From: Acidimicrobiia bacterium
Lineage (GTDB): Bacteria > Actinomycetota > Acidimicrobiia > Spongiisociales > UBA5794
Length of the DNA stretch: 64,000 bases
Direction: 5' to 3'
NCBI GenBank assembly: GCA_013003395.1
Contig: JABDJC010000048.1
Span: forward strand, 2,615-66,614
How positions within the stretch are numbered: position 1 is the first letter of the stretch; every line of letters starts with the position of its first letter. Of this stretch, positions 10 through 30,021 are shown piece after piece. Made by a program: the position numbers and the translations under genes. The notes beneath the pieces were generated by a model. The model was given only the letters and a program-made list of their open reading frames with translations. It searched no databases and was not told the origin of the DNA.

Positions 10-579
10 GTGACCTGGATGTTGTTCGTTTTGGGCGTCGGGCTGGTCGTCGCTCTGATCCGCGGCGGCAAGCTTCGAAATCTCTCTGAGCTCCACTTAC
101 GAGCCGGATGGCTTCTCTTCGTGGGTTTCGGATTGCAGATCGGCGCAGAATTCGTGCCAGACACCGAATCGTGGAGCGGGACAGCGTCTATTGGCCTGAT
201 ACTGGCCTCGTATGTGGCGCTCCTGATCGTCGCTTGGGTCAATAGGGCGCTCCGCGGTATGTGGCTGGCGGGTCTGGGGGTCGCCATGAACTTCACGGTC
301 ATTTCGCTCAATGGAGGGATGCCGGTGTCTCGCGAGGCTTCGATCCTTGCCGGAGGTAGCGGGAATCTGACGCTGGACGCGAAACACACGCTGCTCGACG
401 TCGACAGCGTCCTGCCGTTTCTCGCCGACATCATTCCGGTTCCTGGCAGTGTCATCTCGCTCGGCGACGTCCTGCTGGCGATCGGTTTTGCCGTCTACCT
501 CTCCTACGAGCTTCGCCAGGGTCCGACGCTGTTCCGACACAAGATCACTGGCGAGCCTGGATCAGCGCGCCGCACCTGA
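10..579 (+). CDS. hypothetical integral membrane protein (about 4 predicted TM helices); the frame is open to the window start, so the gene may be 5'-partial
   Basis: GTG at 10 and ATG at 19 are candidate starts. Hydrophobic helices LFVLGVGLVVALI, WLLFVGFGLQIGA, IGLILASYVALLIVAWV and LLAIGFAVYL are visible. No catalytic motif is recognisable. The gene is convergent with the HD-GYP genes. Confidence 0.45.
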   Translation: MTWMLFVLGVGLVVALIRGGKLRNLSELHLRAGWLLFVGFGLQIGAEFVPDTESWSGTASIGLILASYVALLIVAWVNRALRGMWLAGLGVAMNFTVISLNGGMPVSREASILAGGSGNLTLDAKHTLLDVDSVLPFLADIIPVPGSVISLGDVLLAIGFAVYLSYELRQGPTLFRHKITGEPGSARRT

Positions 580-582
580 CGC

Positions 583-1887
583 TCAAGCGGCGACAACACC
601 GTGGTGAACGAGAACACGTCGCAGCGAGGCGATGATCGAAGGGTCGTATTCGTAGGCCGAACCCCGGTGCAATTGCTCGAGCGCCTCGATCGGAGGGAGC
701 CCCCGATCGTGGACACCACGGTCGTACTCGCTCGTGATCTTGATGATCTTCGAAGGGATCGGGAGCGACTCGTCCTTCTCGACTCCCGGCTGTCGGTAGG
801 GCGCATATTGCTGGCGCACCATGTCGGCAGCGCGCTCGAGGTACGGCGCTTCCGAGATGATCTGGGCACCCCATCGGGCAATGTCGTCTGACGTGTAACC
901 GGCGCGGATGATGGCGGGCTCGTTGAGCGTCACCCGACCGATGTCGTGCATCAGGGCGGCGTATTCGAGTTCCTCGACCTCTTCAGGATTCAGGCCCAGC
1001 TCCCGGCCGACGGACGTTGCGAGCTTTGCAGTTCTCACGGCATGGCCGTCAGGAGTCAGGTCCGCAACCTCGGGAATGCGGGCCAACGCCCTGATCATCT
1101 GTCGGTAGGTGGTGCGCGTCAGGTCGTACCGCATGAAGGCAAGGTGGGTGAATGCGTACGGCAACAGTGCCGCGGCGATAGACCAGCCGCCCATCTGAGG
1201 CCACGCAAGCCCCAACAAGGCACCTGAAGCGAACAGCGACAGCGCCACCGGCCAATCCTCGAGAGCCAAGAGCCACACATACCGAACGTCGAGTTGGTGC
1301 TCCTCCAGACCGATGAGCGCGTTCGCCGTTGCTCTCCCCAGGTACCACGCCATGGCACCGCCGGCGACCGATCCGAGGATGACGACATCCAACAGCGCGC
1401 CGGATCCGAGCAAGAGGTACTCGATGCCGAAGAATGCGACAACGAACAGGACCATCGCGATGGCCTCCGACACGAACCGGGTTCGTGCGCGGCGCCGCTC
1501 GCCGGTTCGTGCCACTGACACGATCCAGGCGCCGGCCAGGCCGAAGGCGGTGACTGCACTGGTGCCGTAGAGGTCAGGCATTCCGATGCCGCTTCCGAGC
1601 AGCAGCGGGGTCGCGGCTGCCATGCCGACTCCGAGAAACACCCGATCTCCACTGGGCGCCGGCACCGCGATGAGCTGCGCCAGGGTTATGAGCGTTGCGA
1701 GCACCAAGATCTGAACCAATCCGGTGCGGGCAGAGAGTGTCATGAGCGAACCGACGCCGACGAGGGCAATGAAGGTTGCAGCTCCGAGTCGCATCATGTG
1801 GCGATCAGCCATGTACGGCCAACTGTTCTGCAAGACGTCGGGCTTCGTCCTCGGAAACGACATCAGTCGATCCGTATGTCTCCCCAA
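583..1887 (-). CDS. membrane-anchored HD-domain (HD-GYP-like) phosphohydrolase
   Basis: N-terminal multi-TM domain followed by an HD motif (LEYAALMHDIGRVTL). The maximal ORF start at 1887 overlaps the upstream gene by 83 nt, so the real start is more likely an in-frame ATG at about 1812 or 1800. Confidence 0.7.
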   Translation of the reverse strand: MGRHTDRLMSFPRTKPDVLQNSWPYMADRHMMRLGAATFIALVGVGSLMTLSARTGLVQILVLATLITLAQLIAVPAPSGDRVFLGVGMAAATPLLLGSGIGMPDLYGTSAVTAFGLAGAWIVSVARTGERRRARTRFVSEAIAMVLFVVAFFGIEYLLLGSGALLDVVILGSVAGGAMAWYLGRATANALIGLEEHQLDVRYVWLLALEDWPVALSLFASGALLGLAWPQMGGWSIAAALLPYAFTHLAFMRYDLTRTTYRQMIRALARIPEVADLTPDGHAVRTAKLATSVGRELGLNPEEVEELEYAALMHDIGRVTLNEPAIIRAGYTSDDIARWGAQIISEAPYLERAADMVRQQYAPYRQPGVEKDESLPIPSKIIKITSEYDRGVHDRGLPPIEALEQLHRGSAYEYDPSIIASLRRVLVHHGVVAA

Positions 1888-3145
1888 GTCGTAGAAGCGC
1901 TGAAGCCAGCGCTTCTACGGCGATCGGATCGAACTGCGACCCGGCGTTCCGCCGAAGCTCCGACAAGGCGTACTCCTGGGTGAGGGCAACTCGATACGAC
2001 CGCGTGCTCGTCATCGCATCGAACGAGTCCGCAACAGCCAGGATGCACGCTTCGAGTTCGGGCGTGTCGCCGTGGTTGTGATTCGAACCGTGGTAGCCGT
2101 TGCCGTCGTAGTGCACGTGGTGGTTCGAAGCTATTTCCACCATCGGAGCGAGGAACTCGACCTCGGCCAGCAAGTCCTCGACGAGGTGGACGTGCCTCTG
2201 CATCTGCTCGTATTCCTTGGCATCGAGTTTCGCCCGCTTGGTGATGAGCTCGCGCGGCACCGCCAACTTGCCGACGTCGTGTATCAATGCAGCCCAACGA
2301 AGACGCTCGAGCTGCGTGCCATTGAAACCGAGCTCTTCTCCGATGACCGTCGAGAAGTGTGCCACCCGCTCGGTGTGCCCTCTGGTGTACAAGTCCTTCG
2401 CTTCCAACGCCTTGATGAACCCGCGCAACGTCGACTCCTGCGCTTCGCGTAGTGCCGAATACGACGACAACATGAGGTGACCAACGAAGAACACGACGAA
2501 GATGAGCGGGAGGCTCGCTGCGCCGATCGCGAGGTAAGCCGCGCCCAGGAGGCTGCCCAGAACTCCCATCCCGAGATACGACAAGAAGAACTGCCCGAGA
2601 TTCGACCAGGGCTTGATGTCGGTCTTGCCGTAGACCATCCGCACGGCGTATTGAACCAACGTGAGATTGACGAGGTAGAACGCCGCGACGCTCGGCACCG
2701 TGCCGAGCACTATCAGCCAAAGGTCGTCCGGCGTGACCGGCCCGTTCGGGAGAAACAGCTCGAACAGCGACAATCCGACAGTTGCGCTGAGCGCCAGTTG
2801 GCAGGCGTTGGCGAACGGCTGGAAGAAACGGCGGGCCTTGATATCCGCCGGAGTGAGCGGACTGAGCAGCTCCATTGCCACGACGCCGAGGACTGCCGCA
2901 CCACGACCAAAGACCACAGCAGCAGTGAAGGCGATCATGATCGAGGGGCTCCATATGAGACGATCGTTGGCTTCGGTGGCTCGCCACTCGAAAAGGATCA
3001 TCGCCCCGGCAAAGGACGCCCACAACCAGAACGGTTTGGGAAACGACTGCGTCAGGATCAAGGCAGAGATCGATACGCCTGCCACCACGGCAAACTGAAT
3101 CGCAACTCTACGTTTCGAAATGACCTGACCGTTCAGAACTTTCAC
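1805..3145 (-). CDS. 7TM-receptor domain fused to an HD-GYP phosphohydrolase (cyclic-di-GMP phosphodiesterase family)
   Basis: N-terminal 7-TM-like domain. C-terminal HD-GYP signature: HTERVAHFS...AALIHDVGKLAVP...HHVHYDGNGYHG. Confidence 0.8.
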   Translation of the reverse strand: MKVLNGQVISKRRVAIQFAVVAGVSISALILTQSFPKPFWLWASFAGAMILFEWRATEANDRLIWSPSIMIAFTAAVVFGRGAAVLGVVAMELLSPLTPADIKARRFFQPFANACQLALSATVGLSLFELFLPNGPVTPDDLWLIVLGTVPSVAAFYLVNLTLVQYAVRMVYGKTDIKPWSNLGQFFLSYLGMGVLGSLLGAAYLAIGAASLPLIFVVFFVGHLMLSSYSALREAQESTLRGFIKALEAKDLYTRGHTERVAHFSTVIGEELGFNGTQLERLRWAALIHDVGKLAVPRELITKRAKLDAKEYEQMQRHVHLVEDLLAEVEFLAPMVEIASNHHVHYDGNGYHGSNHNHGDTPELEACILAVADSFDAMTSTRSYRVALTQEYALSELRRNAGSQFDPIAVEALASALLRLGETYGSTDVVSEDEARRLAEQLAVHG

Positions 3146-3806
3146 CTTCCGCCACTGTGTACGACAACGGAGATGACCAGACCTAACGCGCGCGCTCGAA
3201 AAATATCGAGAAAAATGAAAGCCGCACGAATGCGGTTGGCGCTGATGGGGAAGTCAACATTGAGAGAGGGGCCCCGCGGAAGCCTTGTTCGATGTGTAGT
3301 ACGAGATCAACCGATCTTGAATTGTGCTGCGCCGCTCAAGAGAGCAGCGGCGATGCCACCGAGTGTCAAAACGAGCTTTGCGAGCCTGTTCCGCATGGAT
3401 TCTCATCCCCAAGTTGGTTCCTCAACACTGGTCTTCGCTAGTCGTGACCTGCGTTGGGTTTGGATCCGCTCCGCTGGGAATCGAATTTGGCGACCACGGG
3501 AGCCGCCCACTCTCATGCTCCGCTCTCCCTGGGGGGTTGAACAGAGCAAACCGTTCGTTGTCTAGATGCCCGGCTGCACGACGCTCATACCCGAGGACCC
3601 CAAAAAGAAAAGGGCCCTAAAGAGGAGCTCCACACAGCGTATGTCGGTCACTCCCCTAAGCAACCCAGACGTAACATACGTCACTGTGCATGTTCGTGCA
3701 AGGACTTTCTGTAGCAATGCCCCATATGCGAATTCGGCACCATGCCTCACGATCGGCCTGACTACGCTACGCGGCGTACTGATCGAAAAGGGGGGCCGTC
3801 GCAGAG

Positions 3807-14579: not shown

Positions 14580-15599
14580 ATGACCATCACCAAGGGCCGG
14601 CGGAGTTCCATCTCCGCCGGCCCGTTCTCTCGGCTGTGGCTCGCAGGGCTCGTGATGGCAGTGCTGTCTGTCGGCTGCGCTAGGGCGGCGAACGACACGT
14701 CAGCCGCCCTGACGACGTCATCGAGCTCAGCGCAACACAGCTACGACCTACAAGGGCACCGAGGAGCGCGAGGGCTCTCGCCTGAGAACACGCTGCCGTC
14801 GTTCGAAACTGCACTCGATCTCGGCGTAACCACTCTCGAGCTGGACCTCCACCTCTCAGGGGACGGGCAGGTGGTGGTCTGGCACGACCCGCTCATCGAT
14901 CCCACCAAGTGCCACACCGCAGACGGTGAAGGCGCTCCAGCGGCGATCGTGGCCGAAACGCTGGCGGCGGAGCTCTCGCAGTTGGAGTGCGACGGGAACC
15001 CAGACAGTCAGCGTTTCCCTGATCAATCGGCGGAACCAACTGCGCTCGCCGGTAACAACTTTGGCATCGTGACGCTGGGACAGCTGTTCGAGTTCGTTGC
15101 TGCCTACGCCGAGTCAGAACTCAAGACCGAGGGCCAACGTCGCAACGCCGCTGCAGTTCGTTTCAACATCGAGACCAAACGCGTGCCCGACAAACCGTGG
15201 GCAATCGGAGATGACTTCGATGGGACTACCGCAGGACGTTTCGAGCTCGCCATCCTCGACTTGCTCGACCAGCACGGAGTTGGTGAGCGCACCACGGTGC
15301 AGAGCTTCGACCACCGGTCGCTCTGGGCGATCCACGCGGTCGCACCCACCCAAGAACTCGCAGCGCTGACGCGAAGCGGCGACATACCTGACTTCACCGC
15401 CCTTGCTGAACAGGGAGCCACCACATGGGCGCCCGCGTTCGGCTCGATCACGCGTGACCGCGTCGCTGCTGCTCACGAAGCGGGTCTGTTGGTTGTTCCG
15501 TGGACGGTGAACGAGACCGACGAGATGCGTGTGCTGCTCGACTCAGGCGTCGACGGGATCATCACCGACCGTCCGGATCTCGCCCCCCCGTCACAGTGA
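14580..15599 (+). CDS. glpQ: secreted glycerophosphodiester phosphodiesterase
   Basis: N-terminal signal peptide. GDPD motifs HRGARGLSPENTLPSFETALDLGVTTLELDLHLSGDGQVVVWHD. Confidence 0.8.
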   Translation: MTITKGRRSSISAGPFSRLWLAGLVMAVLSVGCARAANDTSAALTTSSSSAQHSYDLQGHRGARGLSPENTLPSFETALDLGVTTLELDLHLSGDGQVVVWHDPLIDPTKCHTADGEGAPAAIVAETLAAELSQLECDGNPDSQRFPDQSAEPTALAGNNFGIVTLGQLFEFVAAYAESELKTEGQRRNAAAVRFNIETKRVPDKPWAIGDDFDGTTAGRFELAILDLLDQHGVGERTTVQSFDHRSLWAIHAVAPTQELAALTRSGDIPDFTALAEQGATTWAPAFGSITRDRVAAAHEAGLLVVPWTVNETDEMRVLLDSGVDGIITDRPDLAPPSQ

Positions 15600-18133
15600 G
15601 ACTGACGGCGTTCGGAGTGGCAACCGTTGCGATGCTTTTCACGCTCCTCACGTCTTGCTCCAGTGACAACGACGCCACCTCGGTGAGCGTTGAAACCGTG
15701 GCCACCGGCCTCCTCAACCCAGTCGGCCTCGCTGTGATGACCGACGGATCCATCCTCATCGCCGAGGAAGGGACCGGCTTGGACGATGCGAGCGCAGGGG
15801 TGTCGCTGATCGCCGATGGAGAAGCGAATCGAGTCGTCAGCGGTCTCAAAAGCGGACGCGACAGCGGCGACCTCTCTGGTGTTCCGCTCGTCGGGGTGGC
15901 TCCAGACGGTCGAACCATCTACACCACACACTTCGGCCTCGGAGGCCTGTACACGTTCGAGCTCCCCGAATCGAAGTCGTCGACGACTGTCCTCGGACCA
16001 GACGACTTGTCGCTGACGATGACGCCACTCAATCGGGTACGGCTCGTCAACCCGTTCGACATTGCGTTCTCTCCGGACGGTCAGCCGGTGGTGACCGACG
16101 CCAGTGACAACGGCGTGGCAATTCGGACAGCCGAAGGGTCTACTGAATTCATTCATCGGTTCGGCGAGCTGCAGGATCCGACGAACGACACCCTTCGCAT
16201 CGACCCCGTGCCGACAGGCATAAGTCGGCAAGGCAGCGAGTATTTCGTATCGCTCACCGGTGGCTGTCCCTATCCGCTCGGATCAGGTCAGGTGGTCGCC
16301 ATCGACGGTCAGCAGAATGAACGACTCGTGGTCGATGGTCTCAACATGCCGATCGACGTCGCCCACGACTCGGCTGGCACGTTGTGGGTGCTCGAGTTCA
16401 CCAGATTCGATCCCGAGGCGTCCTGTTTCACCGGCGAGGGCTACCAGCGTGAAACCGGACGCCTGAGTCGGGTCATCAACGGCGAGTTGGAGGTCGTGGC
16501 GGAAGGCCTGGATCTGCCGACGTCGATGGCCTTCGGGGCAGACGGCTCGATCTACGTCAGTGAGCTGGCAGCCGGCCGAGTCGTCCGCATCACCGGCTTT
16601 GACCAGCAAGCGGCGAGGCCAGAGCCTCCGCCCGAAAGCGAACAACTGACCTTCACCGACGTCGCCGACGACGTCGGATTGACGTTTTCACACAACGCGT
16701 TCGCCAGCGGATCGTTCACCGATCCAACGGCGCAAATGGGCGGCGGCGTATGTTGGCTCGACGCCGATACCGACGGGCGTCTCGACCTGTACCTCGTGGA
16801 CTACAACGGAAGCAACAGGTTGTTCATGAACACCGTCGACGGCTTCGCCGACGCCAGCACCGAAAGCAACACCGATCTTCGCGTTGCAGGAATGGGCTGC
16901 GTCGTTGCCGACTTCACCGGCGACGGATCACCGGACATGTTAGTGACTACCGACGGCACGGACGTATTACTCGTCAACGACGGAACGGGCACCTTCGATC
17001 AAACTGCGCTTGGGTCACCGGAATGGACCACGGGTGCCACCGCCGCCGACGTCGACCTCGACGGCGACCTCGACCTGTTCGTCGGCGCATATCTCGACCT
17101 GGCGGTGAAGATCGACAAGCCGAGCGGTGCGTACCCACAAGATCATCCCGGCCTGCTCAACCATCTGTACCTCAACAACGGTGCCGGCGACTTCACCGAG
17201 GTGACCCTTGATGCCGGATTGATCGATAAACGGCGGACGCTTGGAACGGTTTTCAGCGATTTCGACGGCGATGGTGACGCCGACCTGTACGTGGCCAACG
17301 ACGGCGAAAGCAATCGCTTCTATGAGAATCGCCAGGGCGAAGGGCAGCTCGGCTTTCTCTACGTCGACGTGAGTGACACCGCGGGCACTGACGACTCCGG
17401 AAGCGGCATGGGGATCGCCGCTGCGGACTATGACGCTGACGGTTTCACGGACCTGATGGTGACCAACTGGGATCGTGAACTGCATGCGCTCTACCGAGGC
17501 GCAGACTCCGGTTCGTTCACCTACAGCACGTTTCGGATGGGATACGCCGGCTTCGGCCGTGGCGAAACCGGTTGGGGAACGTCGTGGGCGGACTTCGACA
17601 ATGACAGCGATCTCGACTTGTTCATCGCCAACGGACACGTCCCTGTCACGGACCTCGAGGCCGACGGCGAGATGCTCGAACTGTTCATGAACTTGGCAGA
17701 CGAAGGCACCAGCGGTCAGTTTCGATTCGCAGATTCGGTCGGGCTCACCGATATCGGCCCGCTCCATGCACGAGGCAGCGCGATAGCCGACTTCGACAAC
17801 GACGGTGACTTGGACGTTGCGATCAACAACATCGGCGGAAGCGTCGTCCTGCTTGCCAACAACGGCAGCACAGGTGCCTGGTTCGGTGTTGCAGTGATGC
17901 CACCGACCCCAGGCACCGTCCTCAGTGTCGTTCTCGACGACGGCCGTACCGTTCGACGCGAGCTGCTTGCGGGCAGCAGCTATCTCTCGTCAGAAGATCC
18001 ACGATTCTTCATCGGACTGGGCGCGTCGACGGAAGCCGTACAGGCAACGGTCACCTGGCCAGACGGTCTGCAGGTCGATCTGCCGGACCTGACGTCCAAC
18101 AGATGGCACGGCCTCGCCCGTCCTACGGAGTGA
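15596..18133 (+). CDS. large lipoprotein: N-terminal beta-propeller-like region plus FG-GAP/VCBS repeats and a C-terminal ASPIC/UnbV domain (CRTAC1-family-like)
   Basis: GTG at 15596 overlaps the glpQ stop (GTGA). Lipobox LLTSC. Repeated FG-GAP-like units (DFTGDGSPDMLV, DVDLDGDLDLFV, DFDGDGDADLYVAN, DYDADGFTDLMV, DFDNDSDLDLFIAN, DFDNDGDLDVAINN). C-terminal LAGSSYLSSEDPRFFIGLG is typical of ASPIC/UnbV. Confidence 0.7.
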   Translation: MRLTAFGVATVAMLFTLLTSCSSDNDATSVSVETVATGLLNPVGLAVMTDGSILIAEEGTGLDDASAGVSLIADGEANRVVSGLKSGRDSGDLSGVPLVGVAPDGRTIYTTHFGLGGLYTFELPESKSSTTVLGPDDLSLTMTPLNRVRLVNPFDIAFSPDGQPVVTDASDNGVAIRTAEGSTEFIHRFGELQDPTNDTLRIDPVPTGISRQGSEYFVSLTGGCPYPLGSGQVVAIDGQQNERLVVDGLNMPIDVAHDSAGTLWVLEFTRFDPEASCFTGEGYQRETGRLSRVINGELEVVAEGLDLPTSMAFGADGSIYVSELAAGRVVRITGFDQQAARPEPPPESEQLTFTDVADDVGLTFSHNAFASGSFTDPTAQMGGGVCWLDADTDGRLDLYLVDYNGSNRLFMNTVDGFADASTESNTDLRVAGMGCVVADFTGDGSPDMLVTTDGTDVLLVNDGTGTFDQTALGSPEWTTGATAADVDLDGDLDLFVGAYLDLAVKIDKPSGAYPQDHPGLLNHLYLNNGAGDFTEVTLDAGLIDKRRTLGTVFSDFDGDGDADLYVANDGESNRFYENRQGEGQLGFLYVDVSDTAGTDDSGSGMGIAAADYDADGFTDLMVTNWDRELHALYRGADSGSFTYSTFRMGYAGFGRGETGWGTSWADFDNDSDLDLFIANGHVPVTDLEADGEMLELFMNLADEGTSGQFRFADSVGLTDIGPLHARGSAIADFDNDGDLDVAINNIGGSVVLLANNGSTGAWFGVAVMPPTPGTVLSVVLDDGRTVRRELLAGSSYLSSEDPRFFIGLGASTEAVQATVTWPDGLQVDLPDLTSNRWHGLARPTE

Positions 18134-25375: not shown

Positions 25376-26583
25376 TGGCGCTGATACGCGCACTCGATGC
25401 CTACGTGCCGCGACCCGACGTCGCCGGTGACGTGGTGTCGCCTCCCATTTCGTCCATCGATGCCGCCACCACCGAAGGCGACGCCATCCACCCGCTGAGC
25501 TTTCGAAGGGTCATGCGTCCACCGGAGGACCCGCAGACCGGAGAAGTCGACGATGAAACGCTGGTCGACAGTGGGCTGTGGCTCCGCGATCTGATCGAGC
25601 ACGATGTCTTCGTGCACCACGCGCGGCCTGCGCTGTTCGTGTATCGATTGACCACTGATCTCGCGACCACGACCGGCCTGGTGGCCGATGTGTCGGTGCG
25701 TGCCCTGGAGGCCGACCGTGTCAGACGCCACGAGGACACGGTTGCCGACTCCGAACTCACCGTGACCCGCCACACACGCTTGATCGGCGCCTACGGCGAT
25801 CCCGTGGCTCTTGCCCATGCGTCAACCCCTGACATCAACCGAGCGATCGCACGCGTTATGGATGGAAGCCAGCCCGACTTGGATTTCGAGGATGGCGACA
25901 TCCGGCAACAGCTGTGGGCCGTCACCAACGAACCGACTGTCGACGAGCTCCTCGATGCGTACAACGCCCTAGAGAAGATCTACATCACCGATGGCCACCA
26001 TCGCTCGGCGGCGGCGGCTCGATACGCCGCGGTTCACCGAGCCGCCGGCACGCCTGGTGACGATCACGAATGGTTTTTGGGCGCCTTGTTTTCAGAGGAC
26101 CAAGTTCGAATTCTCGAGTTCAATCGATGCGTCGACGACACGCAAGGCATCGACCATGATGAGTTTGTCCGTCGGCTCGGAGCAACATTCAGGGTCGAGG
26201 AGGTCTCGAGTGCTGATGCGGCGCGTCCCGGCCAACGCGGAGATTTGGGTCTACGCCTCGCCGATCGGTGGTTCCACCTTCGGGTCCTTCCCGAGTTCGT
26301 TTCATCGGATCCGTACGACAGCCTCGATGCGGTAATCCTGCAAGATCACATACTGGCTCCGCTGCTCGGCATCGACGACCCGCGCCGTGACGAACGACTC
26401 CGATTCATCGGCGGTCGGGATGCCTTCGCTGCACTCGCAGAGTGCTCAATCGGCTTTGCGCTGTTCCCGACGTCGATTCAGCAGGTCATGGAGATCGCCG
26501 ATCGAGGCCTCACCATGCCGCCCAAATCGACGTGGTTCGAGCCGAAGCTCCGTGGCGGCATCGTCGTCCGCCTCCTCGACTGA
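25375..26583 (+). CDS. DUF1015-family protein (unknown function), translationally coupled to serC
   Basis: The ATG overlaps the serC stop (TGATG). The conserved ITDGHHRSAAA motif is characteristic of DUF1015. Confidence 0.65.
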   Translation: MALIRALDAYVPRPDVAGDVVSPPISSIDAATTEGDAIHPLSFRRVMRPPEDPQTGEVDDETLVDSGLWLRDLIEHDVFVHHARPALFVYRLTTDLATTTGLVADVSVRALEADRVRRHEDTVADSELTVTRHTRLIGAYGDPVALAHASTPDINRAIARVMDGSQPDLDFEDGDIRQQLWAVTNEPTVDELLDAYNALEKIYITDGHHRSAAAARYAAVHRAAGTPGDDHEWFLGALFSEDQVRILEFNRCVDDTQGIDHDEFVRRLGATFRVEEVSSADAARPGQRGDLGLRLADRWFHLRVLPEFVSSDPYDSLDAVILQDHILAPLLGIDDPRRDERLRFIGGRDAFAALAECSIGFALFPTSIQQVMEIADRGLTMPPKSTWFEPKLRGGIVVRLLD

Positions 26584-26651
26584 CCCACCCGTCTGGACCA
26601 CCCGTACGACGACGTACACTCGCCACCCAACGGACCGCAGGGGTAGAGGTC

Positions 26652-27242
26652 GTGATCACCGGAGTCATCCTCGCTGGAGGAAAGAGCACCCGTATGGGAA
26701 CCGACAAGGCACTTGTCGAACTCGACGGCACGCCTCTCGCTACCCACGTTGCGGGAACGCTGCGCAGCTTTCTCACGACCGTGGTGCTCGTCGGTCGTGA
26801 GTCCCCGATCGGCGACCTCGACGTTCTTCCAGACCGCAACTCGGGGATAGCGGGTCCGCTGCGTGGACTCGCAACGGCACTCGACTGTGTGAAGGCCTCG
26901 TCGGTGCTCCTCGTCGCTGTCGACCAGCCCTTCATGTCTGCCGACACGTTGCGACGCCTCGCAAGTCTGGCCTCGCCTGATCGAGCCGTCGTCCCGGTTG
27001 CAGACGGATACCGGCAGGTGACCACCGCGCTCTACCCCACGAGCTGGGCACGAGAAGCGGCGCAGGAAGCAGACCTGCAGGGTTCGATCCAGACGCTGCT
27101 CGACCGTATGCCTCACCGCACCGTCGGACCGAACGAATGGCAGTCCTGGGGTGAAGACGGTCGCTCTTGGTTCAGCGTCGACACTCCCCAAGCACTCGAT
27201 GACGGTATCAAGCTCTACGGCGCCGCCGCTCGCGATGAGTGA
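26652..27242 (+). CDS. mobA: molybdenum cofactor guanylyltransferase
   Basis: GTG start. VITGVILAGGKSTRMGTDKALVEL...LLVAVDQPF. NTP-transferase fold, MobA-like. Confidence 0.65.
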   Translation: MITGVILAGGKSTRMGTDKALVELDGTPLATHVAGTLRSFLTTVVLVGRESPIGDLDVLPDRNSGIAGPLRGLATALDCVKASSVLLVAVDQPFMSADTLRRLASLASPDRAVVPVADGYRQVTTALYPTSWAREAAQEADLQGSIQTLLDRMPHRTVGPNEWQSWGEDGRSWFSVDTPQALDDGIKLYGAAARDE

Positions 27243-28023
27243 CGCACGCCGCGTCTACCGCGTCCGCCACGGTGTCGGCGAGAGCGTCGACGACATTCTC
27301 GTCGCCGAGGAGCCGGTCGAGTTTCGGCTCGGTTCCACGCCGATAGCGGTGTTGATGCGGACTCCGGGAAACGACGCCGAACTGGGGCTCGGCTTCGCGC
27401 TCACCGAGGCGATCGTTCTACGACCATCGGAAGTAGCTGAGGTTCGGCCCGTTCCCGAGACAGCCGACGACGAGCGGTGGGAGATCGTGCTCTCCGAGGG
27501 CGTGCAGGTCGATCCGGAACAATTCCGACGCAACCTCTACACGACGTCGTCGTGCGGCGTGTGCGGCAAGGCCTCCATCGACGCGGTGCGCATCGCCGCT
27601 CCAAGCCCGCCCGACGGCCCGATGTTGCGGCCAGAAGTCCTACTTGGATTGCCAGACACGATGCGACTTCACCAGACGCAGTTCACCTCGACCGGCGGTA
27701 TCCACGCAGCCGGACTCTTCACGGCCGACGGCACCTTGCTCGAACTGCGAGAGGACATCGGCCGTCACAACGCCGTTGACAAAGTCATCGGCGCCCGTGC
27801 CAAAACGCATTGGCCGCTCGGACAAGTGATCCTGATGGTCTCTGGCCGTGTCTCGTTCGAGATGGTGCAAAAGGCGGCAGTTGCCGGCATCCCCGCCGTG
27901 TGTGGGGTTTCTGCAGCGTCGACGCTGGCTGCCGACCTCGGGGAAGAACTCGGCATCACGGTCATCGGTTTCCTGCGCGATGACGGATTCAACCTGTACG
28001 CCGGCAGCCACCGACTCTCCTGA
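27235..28023 (+). CDS. fdhD: formate dehydrogenase accessory sulfurtransferase
   Basis: CGVCGKASIDAV and IGRHNAVDKVIG motifs. The gene overlaps the mobA 3' end by 8 nt. Confidence 0.8.
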   Translation: MSDARRVYRVRHGVGESVDDILVAEEPVEFRLGSTPIAVLMRTPGNDAELGLGFALTEAIVLRPSEVAEVRPVPETADDERWEIVLSEGVQVDPEQFRRNLYTTSSCGVCGKASIDAVRIAAPSPPDGPMLRPEVLLGLPDTMRLHQTQFTSTGGIHAAGLFTADGTLLELREDIGRHNAVDKVIGARAKTHWPLGQVILMVSGRVSFEMVQKAAVAGIPAVCGVSAASTLAADLGEELGITVIGFLRDDGFNLYAGSHRLS

Positions 28024-29331: not shown

Positions 29332-30021
29332 TCAGCGCAGTCGGGCTTTGTATGCCTCCGTGAATCGATCCATCTGAGCGACCAGTTGATCGGCGTCTTC
29401 TTTCGCCTGCGGATGCCGTGAGCCGAGAGCCACAGCAGCAAACCTGGCACCACGCCAGTACGGCAACATGGCGTGATCCGGCATGGCTCGTTCGCCTGCG
29501 ACAGCCGATCCAACAATGGGAGGCTCCTGATCAGTCGGAGGCAGACCAAGCCGCCTCAGCGCGTCTACGAGTTCATCTTCAGCGAGACGATCGGCGAAGT
29601 CCCGAGACACTCTTCGATAGGCCTCCGTGCCGTCGCTTGTCACGATGATGATGGCTGGATGGGCGATCTTCCCCGGATGCTTCGGATCAGCAAGTCCCAA
29701 GGGCTCGATCGCCAGCGACCGGTCGGGGTCGGACAGCATCGGGAATGGAAGATCGAGCTTCTCGATCATCGCGGAGTGTTGTTCAGGGGTGTCGACGTCA
29801 ATCGCGAAGACGCGAGCGCCTAGGCCGAGAATCTCGTCGTGCCGTTGCGCCAAGCTGACCAGCTGGCCGTTGCAGTACGGTCACCAGTCACCTCTGAGCA
29901 CCACGAGCACCACCGCAGCGTCCAGGTGTTCGCTGAGAGTCCACAAATGGCCCGCTTGGTCCGTCACCGTGAAGTCGATGTCCGCCACCGGAGTGCCTCC
30001 GTCCCTCTGTCGTGGAGCCAA
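29332..30021 (-). CDS. peroxiredoxin-like (AhpC/TSA-redoxin) thioredoxin-fold protein with an in-frame TGA at 29883..29881 in the position of the first Cys of a W-C-P-Y-C motif: candidate selenoprotein (U-P-Y-C), or else a nonsense pseudogene
   Basis: Single frame: TTG(30021) APRQRDGGTPVADIDFTVTDQAGHLWTLSEHLDAAVVLVVLRGDW-[TGA]-PYCNGQLVSLAQRHDEILGLGARVFAIDVDTPEQHSAMIEKLDLPFPMLSDPD... The beta-strand, W, CxxC and helix arrangement is the classic Trx-fold active site. The track only calls the part downstream of the TGA (29332..29853). Confidence 0.5.
29842..29880 (-). promoter_or_regulatory. candidate bacterial SECIS hairpin immediately 3' of the in-frame UGA
   Basis: RNA: UGA-CCGUACUGCAACGGCCAGCUG[GGUC]AGCUUGGCGCAACGG. 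Lower stem CCGU/ACGG and UGC/GCA. Upper stem GCCAGCU/AGCUUGGC with one bulged U. The GGUC apical loop starts 21 nt after the UGA. For comparison, the E. coli fdhF SECIS has a GGUC loop about 19 nt after the UGA and a bulged U. Confidence 0.4.

Follow-up and report, generated by a model that had tools for sequence, protein, structure and literature searches.

A minus-strand locus in a 64,000-nucleotide stretch of DNA from an Acidimicrobiia bacterium (the window) is almost certainly, as judged from sequence comparison, a real gene for a selenocysteine-containing thioredoxin-fold redox protein that annotation has split at an in-frame UGA codon. The locus very probably encodes one cytoplasmic oxidoreductase of about 218 residues, with a thioredoxin/peroxiredoxin fold and a Sec-Pro-Tyr-Cys motif, in which the UGA is recoded to selenocysteine (Sec). 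The observations made here comprise a conserved UGA, coding on both of its sides, a pair of Sec and Cys forms, a hairpin over which synonymous change is suppressed, and the fold. The gene belongs to a kind of bacterial selenoprotein that has been described since 2005 and is not a new kind, since Prx-like UxxC selenoproteins have been known from that year onward.

On the minus strand the frame runs from a GTG at 29988 (or a TTG at 30021) to its TGA stop, with the TGA at 29883..29881 as the sole interruption, around which it reads ...DFTVTDQAGHLWTLSEHLDAAVVLVVLRGDW*PYCNGQLVSLAQRHDEIL... (Table 1). The interrupting codon sits within an AhpC/TSA domain, in the motif RGDW-U-P-Y-C. When Cys is put at the stop, Pfam AhpC-TSA (PF00578) matches residues 16-132 (E 2.5e-23, 82.8 bits against a cut-off of 26) and Redoxin matches as well (E 1.7e-12); the match spans the UGA and confirms the continuous AhpC/TSA-like protein that the initial annotation had read across this codon. 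The gene span first proposed, 29332-30021, holds as to frame, and the GTG is the likelier start, since it leaves 35 codons before Sec, as against mostly 32-39 in relatives, and has a GGAGG upstream.

Table 1. Features of the candidate selenoprotein gene, in window coordinates
Feature	Position	Strand	Remarks
Selenoprotein CDS, complete (predicted)	29332..29988	-	218 codons (35 + Sec + 182), then TGA stop 29334..29332; continuous frame
Alternative start TTG	30021	-	adds 11 codons upstream of GTG 29988
Shine-Dalgarno-like GGAGG	29996..30000	-	7 nt upstream of GTG 29988; read from the sequence, function putative
In-frame UGA, predicted Sec	29881..29883	-	residue 36 from GTG, 47 from TTG; TGA in 81/81, Cys in distant homologues
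Apical hairpin, SECIS-type (putative)	29849..29867	-	4-bp stem, one-base 3' bulge at 29853, 3-bp stem, GGUC loop 29857..29860
39-nt hairpin as first proposed	29842..29880	-	lower stem 29880..29872 with 29848..29842; forms in the window only
Thioredoxin/peroxiredoxin-fold domain (AhpC/TSA)	29626..29976	-	Pfam
U-P-Y-C redox motif	29872..29883	-	phmmer alignments to peroxiredoxin structures 5xbs, 2cx3
Family-specific C-terminal extension	29335..29550	-	conserved in Sec and Cys forms
Pro-rich linker of extension	29479..29550	-	
Two long extension helices	29413..29478 and 29335..29406	-	carry conserved motifs

The fold places the UGA at the heart of the active site. Alignments of the translation by phmmer to 5xbs and 2cx3 set Sec at the Thr of the peroxiredoxin TxxC and the Cys of the motif at the peroxidatic-Cys position, and together with the Cys homologues and the Pfam match they bear out the proposal that the UGA occupies the N-terminal redox position of a thioredoxin-fold U-x-x-C. 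Both the Tyr and the Cys of U-P-Y-C are invariant in the family. Solved-structure matches cover only a stretch as large as the core fold, about 130-163 residues, and include peroxiredoxins of the BCP/PrxQ and AhpE types (M. tuberculosis BcpB, 5epf, and AhpE, 1xxu/5id2; Sulfolobus Bcp, 3hjp/3drn), with 16-27% identity over the top ten. Against these proteins, which lack a C-terminal helical hairpin, the window family has an invariant Arg for the Pro and Sec for the Thr of the signature PxxxTxxC, so that R-G-D-W-U-P-Y-C keeps the Cys alone, and a Pro is aligned to the catalytic Arg. The position adjacent to this Pro is His in the window and R, Y, I or L in the family. A one-residue structural shift is possible at the aligned catalytic Arg. 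Oxidoreductases with a CxxC site of the TlpA/ResA/CcmG type are extracytoplasmic, either membrane-anchored or secreted. Their structural match is weaker than that of the peroxiredoxins, and the window sequence has no hydrophobic N-terminus.

With Sec in place of the Thr of PxxxTxxC and with the motif Pro missing, the predicted protein is 'Prx-like', with a thioredoxin-like UxxC site, and not a peroxiredoxin. A genuine peroxiredoxin, in which the Cys of UPYC would attack peroxide as in BCP/PrxQ and Sec would be merely resolving or auxiliary, fits the alignment of that Cys to the peroxidatic Cys as well as the AhpC/TSA assignment, yet we consider it unlikely in view of the lost signature, the Pro aligned to the catalytic Arg with a variable residue beside it, and NCBIfam scores far under their cut-offs (PrxQ 35 against 260; PrxU 29.5 against 270). 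Known Sec peroxiredoxins, moreover, place Sec at the peroxidatic position itself, as TxxU (PMC1088965, PMC13188914).

A scan with the protein matched 383 species-level genomes, and the UGA was checked in the best 80. The resulting comparison set comprises 81 sequences, namely 80 loci from species-representative genomes, almost all of them Acidimicrobiia MAGs, and the window; among the carriers of an orthologue are OZ242000.1, OZ244213.1, OZ242375.1 and CP070681.1. TGA occupies the identical column in all 81 sequences, which come from different species and independent assemblies and share 50-66% protein identity, and the tblastn matches cross it, extending from query residues about 4-16 to about 225. 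The 28 codons 5' of the UGA carry the periodicity of coding sequence, the entropy being 0.80 bits at the first codon position, 0.63 at the second and 1.40 at the third. Both flanks of the UGA are conserved as protein, a pattern indicative of purifying selection on both halves. TGA also acts as an ordinary stop in these genomes, where it ends 42 of the 81 orthologues as well as the window gene.

Over the codons that follow the UGA, constraint extends beyond the protein. Mean third-position entropy across codons +1 to +12 is 0.60 bits, compared with 1.35 upstream and 1.46 downstream, and synonymous sites over the hairpin are frozen (CAG 81/81, GTC 70/70, AGC 75/78, GGC 73/81). More distant homologues supply the Cys counterpart. 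At 35-50% identity there are full-length Cys forms whose codon in the Sec column is TGT or TGC, so that alignment of homologues, as proposed at the outset, puts Cys exactly there; the motif RGDW-C-x-x-C occurs in P0243, P0244, P0247, P0253, P0254, P0260, P0288 and P0290, and the Cys codon was confirmed in the DNA of six of these. Within about 50% identity, all members found are Sec forms. The hairpin is absent from four of the six Cys forms, one of which (L085) encodes the identical GQLVSLA peptide through other codons. The other two (L081 and L083) retain it at the same position, and their hairpins could be fossil SECIS elements left by recent Sec-to-Cys conversions. Taken together, the invariant TGA, the Cys homologues and the frozen synonymous sites over the hairpin uphold the original claim that this UGA is a sense codon of a selenoprotein gene.

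The RNA element itself is smaller than was first proposed. A 39-nt hairpin that follows the UGA immediately, carries a bulged U and is capped by a GGUC loop was described in the initial annotation, and this structure is indeed the minimum-energy fold of the 39-nt stretch taken alone (-13.3 kcal/mol). Considered in the window alone, however, the hairpin does not rise above chance, because a 71-nt stretch is as stable as its shuffles (z = -0.01) and a competing fold exists, the best fold of the window sequence changing when 9 nt of upstream sequence are added. It is comparison that takes the hairpin beyond chance, through the invariant TGA, the low third-position entropy, the pairing across relatives and the result of RNAalifold. 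With the U of UGA counted as nt 1, nt 17-23 and 28-35 are paired in 98.9% of cells across relatives, whereas pairing in the lower stem (nt 4-12 with 36-42) reaches only 53.9%, so that this part falls away as a conserved feature. What the relatives share is an apical hairpin of 19 nt that starts 13 nt downstream of the UGA; its loop begins 20 nt after the UGA (nt 24-27) and reads GGUC in 70 of 81 sequences and GGCC in the remaining 11. At the bulge, nt 31, all four bases (U, C, G, A) occur among the relatives, and the U drawn at first is not conserved. On this comparative footing, and mostly by virtue of its conservation, the apical 19 nt is a conserved hairpin of putative SECIS type. Pair 18-34 is compensated (CG 70, AU 3, UG 3, GU 1). 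Covariation is thin, with one pair compensated in four related sequences, probably through one or two events.

A structure search of the 29842..29880 region had been recommended at the outset. RNAalifold independently returns the identical apical hairpin, and Rfam gives no match over the whole window at gathering thresholds and none over 29780..29920 at E up to 10. Two other pairings were considered and set aside. A 4-bp mini-hairpin in the GGCC/GGUC segment is paired in 98.4% of cells, shows no covariation and breaks at just the point where the apical hairpin shows compensation; pairing of an upstream GAC-UGG with CUGGUCA reaches 84.3%, with 11 A-C mismatches, compared with 98.9% in the apical hairpin. 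For the 11 sequences with a GGCC loop the mini-hairpin may still hold.

The resemblance to the E. coli fdhF SECIS, which formed part of the original claim, is one of loop and general shape. Each is a hairpin that follows directly on a UGA, its stem interrupted by a one-base bulge and its four-base loop reading GGUC; this loop occupies nt 24-27 in the window family and nt 22-25 in fdhF, whose sequence was verified. In the fdhF structure the bulged U lies on the 5' strand, below the loop. The bulge of the window family lies instead on the 3' strand (nt 31) and its base varies; 11 relatives have a GGCC loop, the lower stem is unconserved, and sequence similarity ends at the loop. The 20-nt distance falls within the 16-37 nt range reported between the UGA and the loop of bacterial SECIS elements (PMC10778597), and the G in the small apical loop agrees with the description of that loop as containing G (PMC1088965).

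The machinery for Sec insertion appears to be unlinked to the gene. In the 64-kb window and the roughly 1.2 Mb that flank the gene in the 80 loci, tblastn with the E. coli SelA, SelB and SelD queries (checked full-length against PDB 8uzw, 5lzb and 3u0o) returned no selA, selB or selD, and ARAGORN no tRNA-Sec. Sec competence of the window genome is presumed from its relatives. SelD, SelA and SelB are recorded for three cultured Acidimicrobiia, Ilumatobacter coccineus, I. nonamiensis and Ca. Microthrix parvicella, together with 15, 10 and 7 selenoproteins respectively (PMC5029168 supplement), and a preprint on Actinomarina, of the same class, reports selA, selC and selD in all 84 genomes, plus a divergent selB below threshold. 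Unlike these lineages, Acidimicrobium ferrooxidans has no Sec machinery reported. The initial annotation had also taken fdhD and mobA in the window as a sign of a formate dehydrogenase selenoprotein; both genes are real, and they are weak evidence for Sec use. A tblastn search with E. coli FdhF found no formate dehydrogenase catalytic subunit in the window, its sole match being a non-FDH molybdoenzyme in L039. A second selenoprotein was sought by clustering 10,689 TGA-bridging 45-residue peptides from the window and the loci, among which the Prx-like family was the sole real cluster, the rest being low-complexity out-of-frame translations. The neighbours of the gene in the window (FabH, glycerate 2-kinase, FdhD and MobA) show no synteny with the 80 loci, across which there is no conserved neighbourhood; recurrence of a neighbouring family is limited to one nine-locus clade.

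The negative searches for the Sec machinery lend something to the proposal that the UGA terminates translation, or is read through at a low level by a near-cognate tRNA inserting, for instance, Trp or Cys. The hairpin would on that view have some other task, such as pausing, reinitiation or stabilising the mRNA, and translation would yield either two peptides or one protein with Trp or Cys at this codon. The proposal can also draw on the competing fold of GAC-UGG with CUGGUCA and on the two Cys forms that keep the hairpin, which indicate that the hairpin can exist without a UGA. Against it, a stop at this codon would cut the fold through its active site, between beta-strand and helix; there is no conserved restart codon, the called starts differing among genomes; Cys stands at the UGA column in homologues, a pattern found throughout published selenoprotein families; the competing fold is less well paired than the apical hairpin; and Ilumatobacter, Ca. 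Microthrix and Actinomarina, though not Acidimicrobium ferrooxidans, are reported to have the machinery for Sec. We regard termination or read-through without Sec as very unlikely.

Under the preferred reading, that of a Sec-containing oxidoreductase, we infer SelB-dependent decoding in the host, a catalytic cycle and the nature of the substrate as follows. The UGA at 29883..29881 would be recoded to selenocysteine in translation, with the 19-nt hairpin and its GGUC loop recruiting SelB and Sec-tRNA(Sec) to the ribosome, like the elements of other bacterial selenoprotein genes. Sec, at the exposed N-terminal position of the motif and the start of the active-site helix, would be the nucleophile and would attack an oxidised substrate, possibly a disulfide, sulfenic acid or peroxide. 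A selenenylsulfide would then form between Sec and the motif Cys, three residues further on, and a cellular thiol reductant would regenerate the enzyme.

Proteins of this kind were named Prx-like protein in the Sargasso Sea data (2005) and Prx-like 1 in the GOS data (2008), and the surveys of 2016 and 2026 list them as Prx-like thiol:disulfide oxidoreductases (PF00578, UxxC/UxxU). The window family shares with the Prx-like UxxC selenoproteins the PF00578 fold, a UxxC in place of TxxU and the motif W-U-P-Y-C-x-x-Q-L-V, and for both the function is predicted. The part of GOS Dataset S1 available to us contains at least 67 'WUPYC' and at least 19 'DWUPYC' strings, and the string 'YCNGQL' does not occur in that part. 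BLASTP against two GOS 'Prx-like 1' reads, JCVI_READ_900765 and JCVI_READ_286511, gives 33% identity over 99 residues and 28% over 123 residues, respectively (E 1e-13 each), with WUPYC, and Sec to Sec, aligned in both. Identity between GOS Prx-like 1 and the window protein is thus only about 30%, and the two compared reads lack the extension of about 70 residues (a linker and two helices) that the window family carries. GOS Prx-like 1 has, further, about 12 Cys homologues per selenoprotein, in contrast to the uniformly Sec membership of the window family within its identity range, and the window family is almost entirely confined to Acidimicrobiia. The best-scoring NCBIfam models, NF040769 ('SelL-related redox protein') and NF040737 ('PrxU'), belong to the same superfamily; the former scores 43.9 against a cut-off of 120 and the latter falls as far short as noted above, which makes the protein a member of neither, and no curated NCBIfam model covers the subfamily.

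The helices of the C-terminal extension carry the conserved motifs Y-x-R-G-A-R-F and R-H ... M-D-R-[FY]. In a structure model made on the orthologue P0004 they span residues 170-191 and 196-223, and a Pfam scan of the extension alone gave nothing meaningful (best E 0.13, 11.9 bits). The extension may serve in partner binding or oligomerisation. It is conceivable, if somewhat short of an even bet, that the family is a distinct Prx-like UxxC subfamily, undescribed and uncurated, that extends across the Acidimicrobiia and is marked by Sec throughout its range of about 50% identity and by the two-helix extension.

That automated annotation would split the gene was predicted from the window and proved correct. 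Among the 120 best matches to the full query 118 start after the UGA and are C-terminal fragments, and 119 of the 120 best matches to the N-terminus stop exactly at ...RGDW/F, as mini-ORFs of 32-84 residues. The starts called after the UGA vary by genome (MASLAQRH, MAQRH, MFAID, MIEKL), some split calls are named 'peroxiredoxin family protein' by NCBI, and hundreds of further split calls occur in other metagenomes. The fragments, the existence of Cys forms and the single base change that separates a Cys codon (TGC/TGT) from TGA would all accord with a sequencing or assembly error or a recent inactivation leaving a pseudogene or fragment, an explanation effectively refuted by the same TGA in 81 independent assemblies from different, divergent species, by purifying selection on both halves, and by the split calls elsewhere.

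The gene is split wherever calls were inspected, and all NCBIfam models score under their cut-offs. A model of its own, together with a selenoprotein rule, would mend the calls across the genomes matched by the scan. The finding leaves knowledge of how selenoproteins work unchanged. It provides a clean pairing of Sec with Cys forms, the SECIS hairpin being present in some and absent from others, for the study of gain and loss of the Sec codon and its RNA element. Should the subfamily prove distinct, its extension could determine a partner or substrate unique to this group among the Prx-like selenoproteins. The finding also adds a widespread selenoprotein to the Acidimicrobiia, whose members Ilumatobacter and Ca. 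Microthrix are already credited with large selenoproteomes in published surveys.

The initial annotation had proposed that a minus-strand peroxiredoxin-like gene is read through an in-frame TGA encoding selenocysteine (Sec), and the frame is indeed continuous: from TTG 30021 it encodes MAPRQRDGGTPVADIDFTVTDQAGHLWTLSEHLDAAVVLVVLRGDW, meets the TGA and resumes as PYCNGQLVSLAQRHDEILGLGARVFAIDVD..., running to a second TGA. With Cys typed at the stop, the read-through protein matches Pfam AhpC-TSA over residues 16-132 (E 2.5e-23), an alignment spanning the UGA, and also Redoxin. The ORF list breaks the gene into 46-aa and 173-aa pieces, and, as anticipated, such fragments also occur among the best database matches. 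The likelier start is GTG 29988 rather than TTG 30021, since it lies 7 nt downstream of GGAGG and places 35 codons ahead of the UGA, close to the N-terminal length of relatives (mostly 32-39). The ordinary UGA stop lies 182 codons past the Sec UGA in the same gene; one mRNA would therefore use UGA in both senses.

Positions of the selenoprotein gene, its RNA element and other features (window coordinates unless stated; nt counted from the U of UGA as 1)
Feature	Position	Strand	Detail
Sec UGA	29883..29881	-	
Terminal UGA stop	29334..29332	-	
39-nt hairpin	29880..29842	-	
Apical hairpin	pairs 17-35, 18-34, 19-33, 20-32, 21-30, 22-29, 23-28		one-base bulge 31
Apical hairpin loop	nt 24-27		GGUC in 70 sequences, GGCC in 11
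CAG (Gln)	after UGA		frozen, 81/81
GTC (Val)	after UGA		frozen, 70/70
GGC (Gly)	after UGA		near-fixed, 73/81
AGC (Ser)	after UGA		near-fixed, 75/78
G-ending Leu codons	after UGA		81/81
MobA-like and FdhD genes	26442..28023	+	adjoining
FdhD coding sequence	27151..28023		
ARAGORN 'tRNA-Asn'	27263..27351	+	89 nt, anticodon ATT
877-aa ORF	15500..18133	+	ScyD/ScyE family NF033206

A search of the read-through product against 5.8 billion proteins gave 485 matches. Among the best 120, 118 start just past the UGA (MASLAQRH..., MAQRHDEIL..., MIEKL...). Two JGI metagenome gene calls, P0004 and P0008, are the exceptions: they retain the N-terminus and read LRGDW-W-PYCNGQ, so the genes on their contigs were predicted using a TGA=Trp table. 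The 320-aa P0008 appears to pass its terminal stop too. A profile restricted to the 48 N-terminal residues matched 276 proteins, of which 119 of the best 120 are mini-ORFs of 32-84 residues terminating exactly at ...RGDW/F. A scan of 185,579 species-representative genomes, one per species, found a relative encoded in 383. The best 80 loci were fetched, nearly all from genomes labelled Acidimicrobiia MAGs and including four complete chromosomes; with the window included, the column holds TGA in 81/81 sequences, flanked as RGD[WF]-TGA-x-Y-C. Over the 28 codons preceding it, variation has the periodicity of a coding sequence (entropy 0.80, 0.63 and 1.40 bits at positions 1, 2 and 3). These genomes use TGA as a regular stop, and it terminates 42/81 orthologues and the window gene. 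This comparative evidence excludes a pseudogene, as well as sequencing error and whole-genome codon reassignment. The source organism seems to be without a close representative in the species-representative collection, where the top match is only 64-66% identical to the window protein; fragments with 100%, 88% and 86% identity occur in Logan assemblies.

An exhaustive HMMER search with P0004 as query returned 2,314 matches at E <= 0.001 and 170 at E <= 1e-10. Full-length Cys homologues (35-50% identity) read RGDW-C-[PAS]-[YFW]-C-N-G-Q-L and share the C-terminal extension, and the DNA of six has TGT or TGC in the Sec column, so that homologues place Cys where the UGA stands. Judged by sequence, the two forms are a classical Sec/Cys pair. 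Cys forms were rare among those found (clusters of 1-6 members), and all forms seen within ~50% identity carry Sec.

The 39-nt hairpin first described after the UGA is the minimum-energy fold of the isolated stretch (-13.3 kcal/mol), but in the window sequence alone it does not exceed chance: a 71-nt segment is as stable as its shuffles (z = -0.01), and adding 9 upstream bases changes the best fold. The case therefore rests on the comparison of relatives. There only 53.9% of cells are paired in the proposed lower stem and the bulged position is variable, whereas the apical part is conserved, with 98.9% of cells paired (pair 18-34: CG 70, AU 3, UG 3, GU 1, unpaired 2); RNAalifold gives the same structure unprompted. 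Two rival folds (a GGCC/GGUC mini-hairpin; GAC-UGG with CUGGUCA) fit less well than this apical hairpin. The likeness to the E. coli fdhF SECIS (sequence verified) holds for the GGUC loop and approximately for its distance, here 2 nt farther from the UGA, but not for the bulge, since the fdhF bulged U lies on the opposite strand. The loop begins 20 nt past the UGA and contains G, within the published bacterial range of 16-37 nt and with the typical G (PMC10778597, PMC1088965).

Covariation in the hairpin is modest among these related sequences, so the strongest arguments are local synonymous freezing and its release in Cys forms. Mean third-position entropy is 0.60 bits in codons +1..+12 after the UGA, where codon choice is nearly fixed, versus 1.35 upstream and 1.46 in the rest of the gene; elsewhere in the same genes Gly, Leu, Val and Ser columns use every synonymous codon. 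As a natural control, the hairpin is absent in four of six Cys forms, among them L085, which encodes the same GQLVSLA peptide via CTC-GTC-TCC-CTC. Two Cys forms have a hairpin at the SECIS place, L083 (gene 1001..1726; 7/7 pairs, loop GAUG) and L081 (gene 3001..3642; perfect 8-bp stem, GUG triloop), and these may be fossil SECIS elements left by Sec-to-Cys conversion. The loci with a GGCC loop (L030, L036, L038, L054, L058, L066, L068, L070, L071, L072 and L080) have CAG-UUG-GCC (Val to Ala) in nt 16-36 after the UGA. Their SECIS shape may differ; the isolated 21 nt of L030 and L070 prefer a hairpin in which 4 bp of GGCC/GGCC enclose the loop AGUU.

In alignments to solved peroxiredoxins, Sec takes the place of the Thr in PxxxTxxC, and the Cys that follows it matches the peroxidatic Cys. 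Canonical peroxiredoxins have the signature Pro, Thr and a catalytic Arg; here those columns hold an invariant Arg, Sec and Pro (the position neighbouring this Pro is variable), and the protein is thus predicted to combine a peroxiredoxin scaffold with a thioredoxin-like UxxC site rather than to be a peroxiredoxin. The confident AlphaFold2 model of the orthologue P0004 (mean pLDDT 95.5) has a Trx/Prx core joined by a Pro-rich linker to two long helices at the C-terminus. The helices lie outside the solved-structure matches, which span only ~130-163 residues, matching the core in size, and the extension alone had no meaningful Pfam match. The sequence has no hydrophobic N-terminus, so the protein is presumably cytoplasmic; no conserved gene neighbour was found. 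Most likely, Sec would act as nucleophile and form a selenenylsulfide with the downstream Cys, and a thiol reductant would regenerate the enzyme.

Validated queries found no Sec-decoding genes in the window or the flanks of the 80 loci. Sec use in the class has support in the literature: SelD, SelA and SelB are listed for Ilumatobacter coccineus, I. nonamiensis and Ca. Microthrix parvicella, with 15, 10 and 7 selenoproteins, respectively (PMC5029168 supplement), and all 84 Actinomarina genomes are reported to have selA, selC, selD and a divergent, below-threshold selB (preprint). The machinery is not universal in Acidimicrobiia, as Acidimicrobium ferrooxidans is listed with none (PMC5029168 supplement). 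The fdhD and mobA genes, taken earlier to imply a formate dehydrogenase elsewhere in the genome, are both real, but tblastn with E. coli FdhF found no catalytic subunit in the 64-kb window. The 'tRNA-Asn' is almost certainly a false positive, because the FdhD coding sequence encloses it. The 877-aa ORF matches its family over residues 65-365 only (127 bits, cut-off 80).

The suggested link to known bacterial selenoprotein families proved sound. The GOS study lists 225 selenoproteins as 'Prx-like 1, pfam00578, UxxC' (PMC2398784); the available part of its Dataset S1 contains at least 67 'WUPYC' strings, and the window protein shares 28-33% identity with two such reads, Sec aligning to Sec. A 2026 review (PMC13188914) gives 'Prx-like thiol:disulfide oxidoreductase, PF00578, UxxC/UxxU' as a high-confidence prediction. 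The kind is therefore already known, and every NCBIfam model scored below cut-off (best, SelL-related, 43.9 vs 120). The locus is almost certainly a genuine, mis-annotated selenoprotein gene of this kind; the divergent Acidimicrobiia subfamily, its C-terminal extension and its near-exclusive use of Sec may be new.
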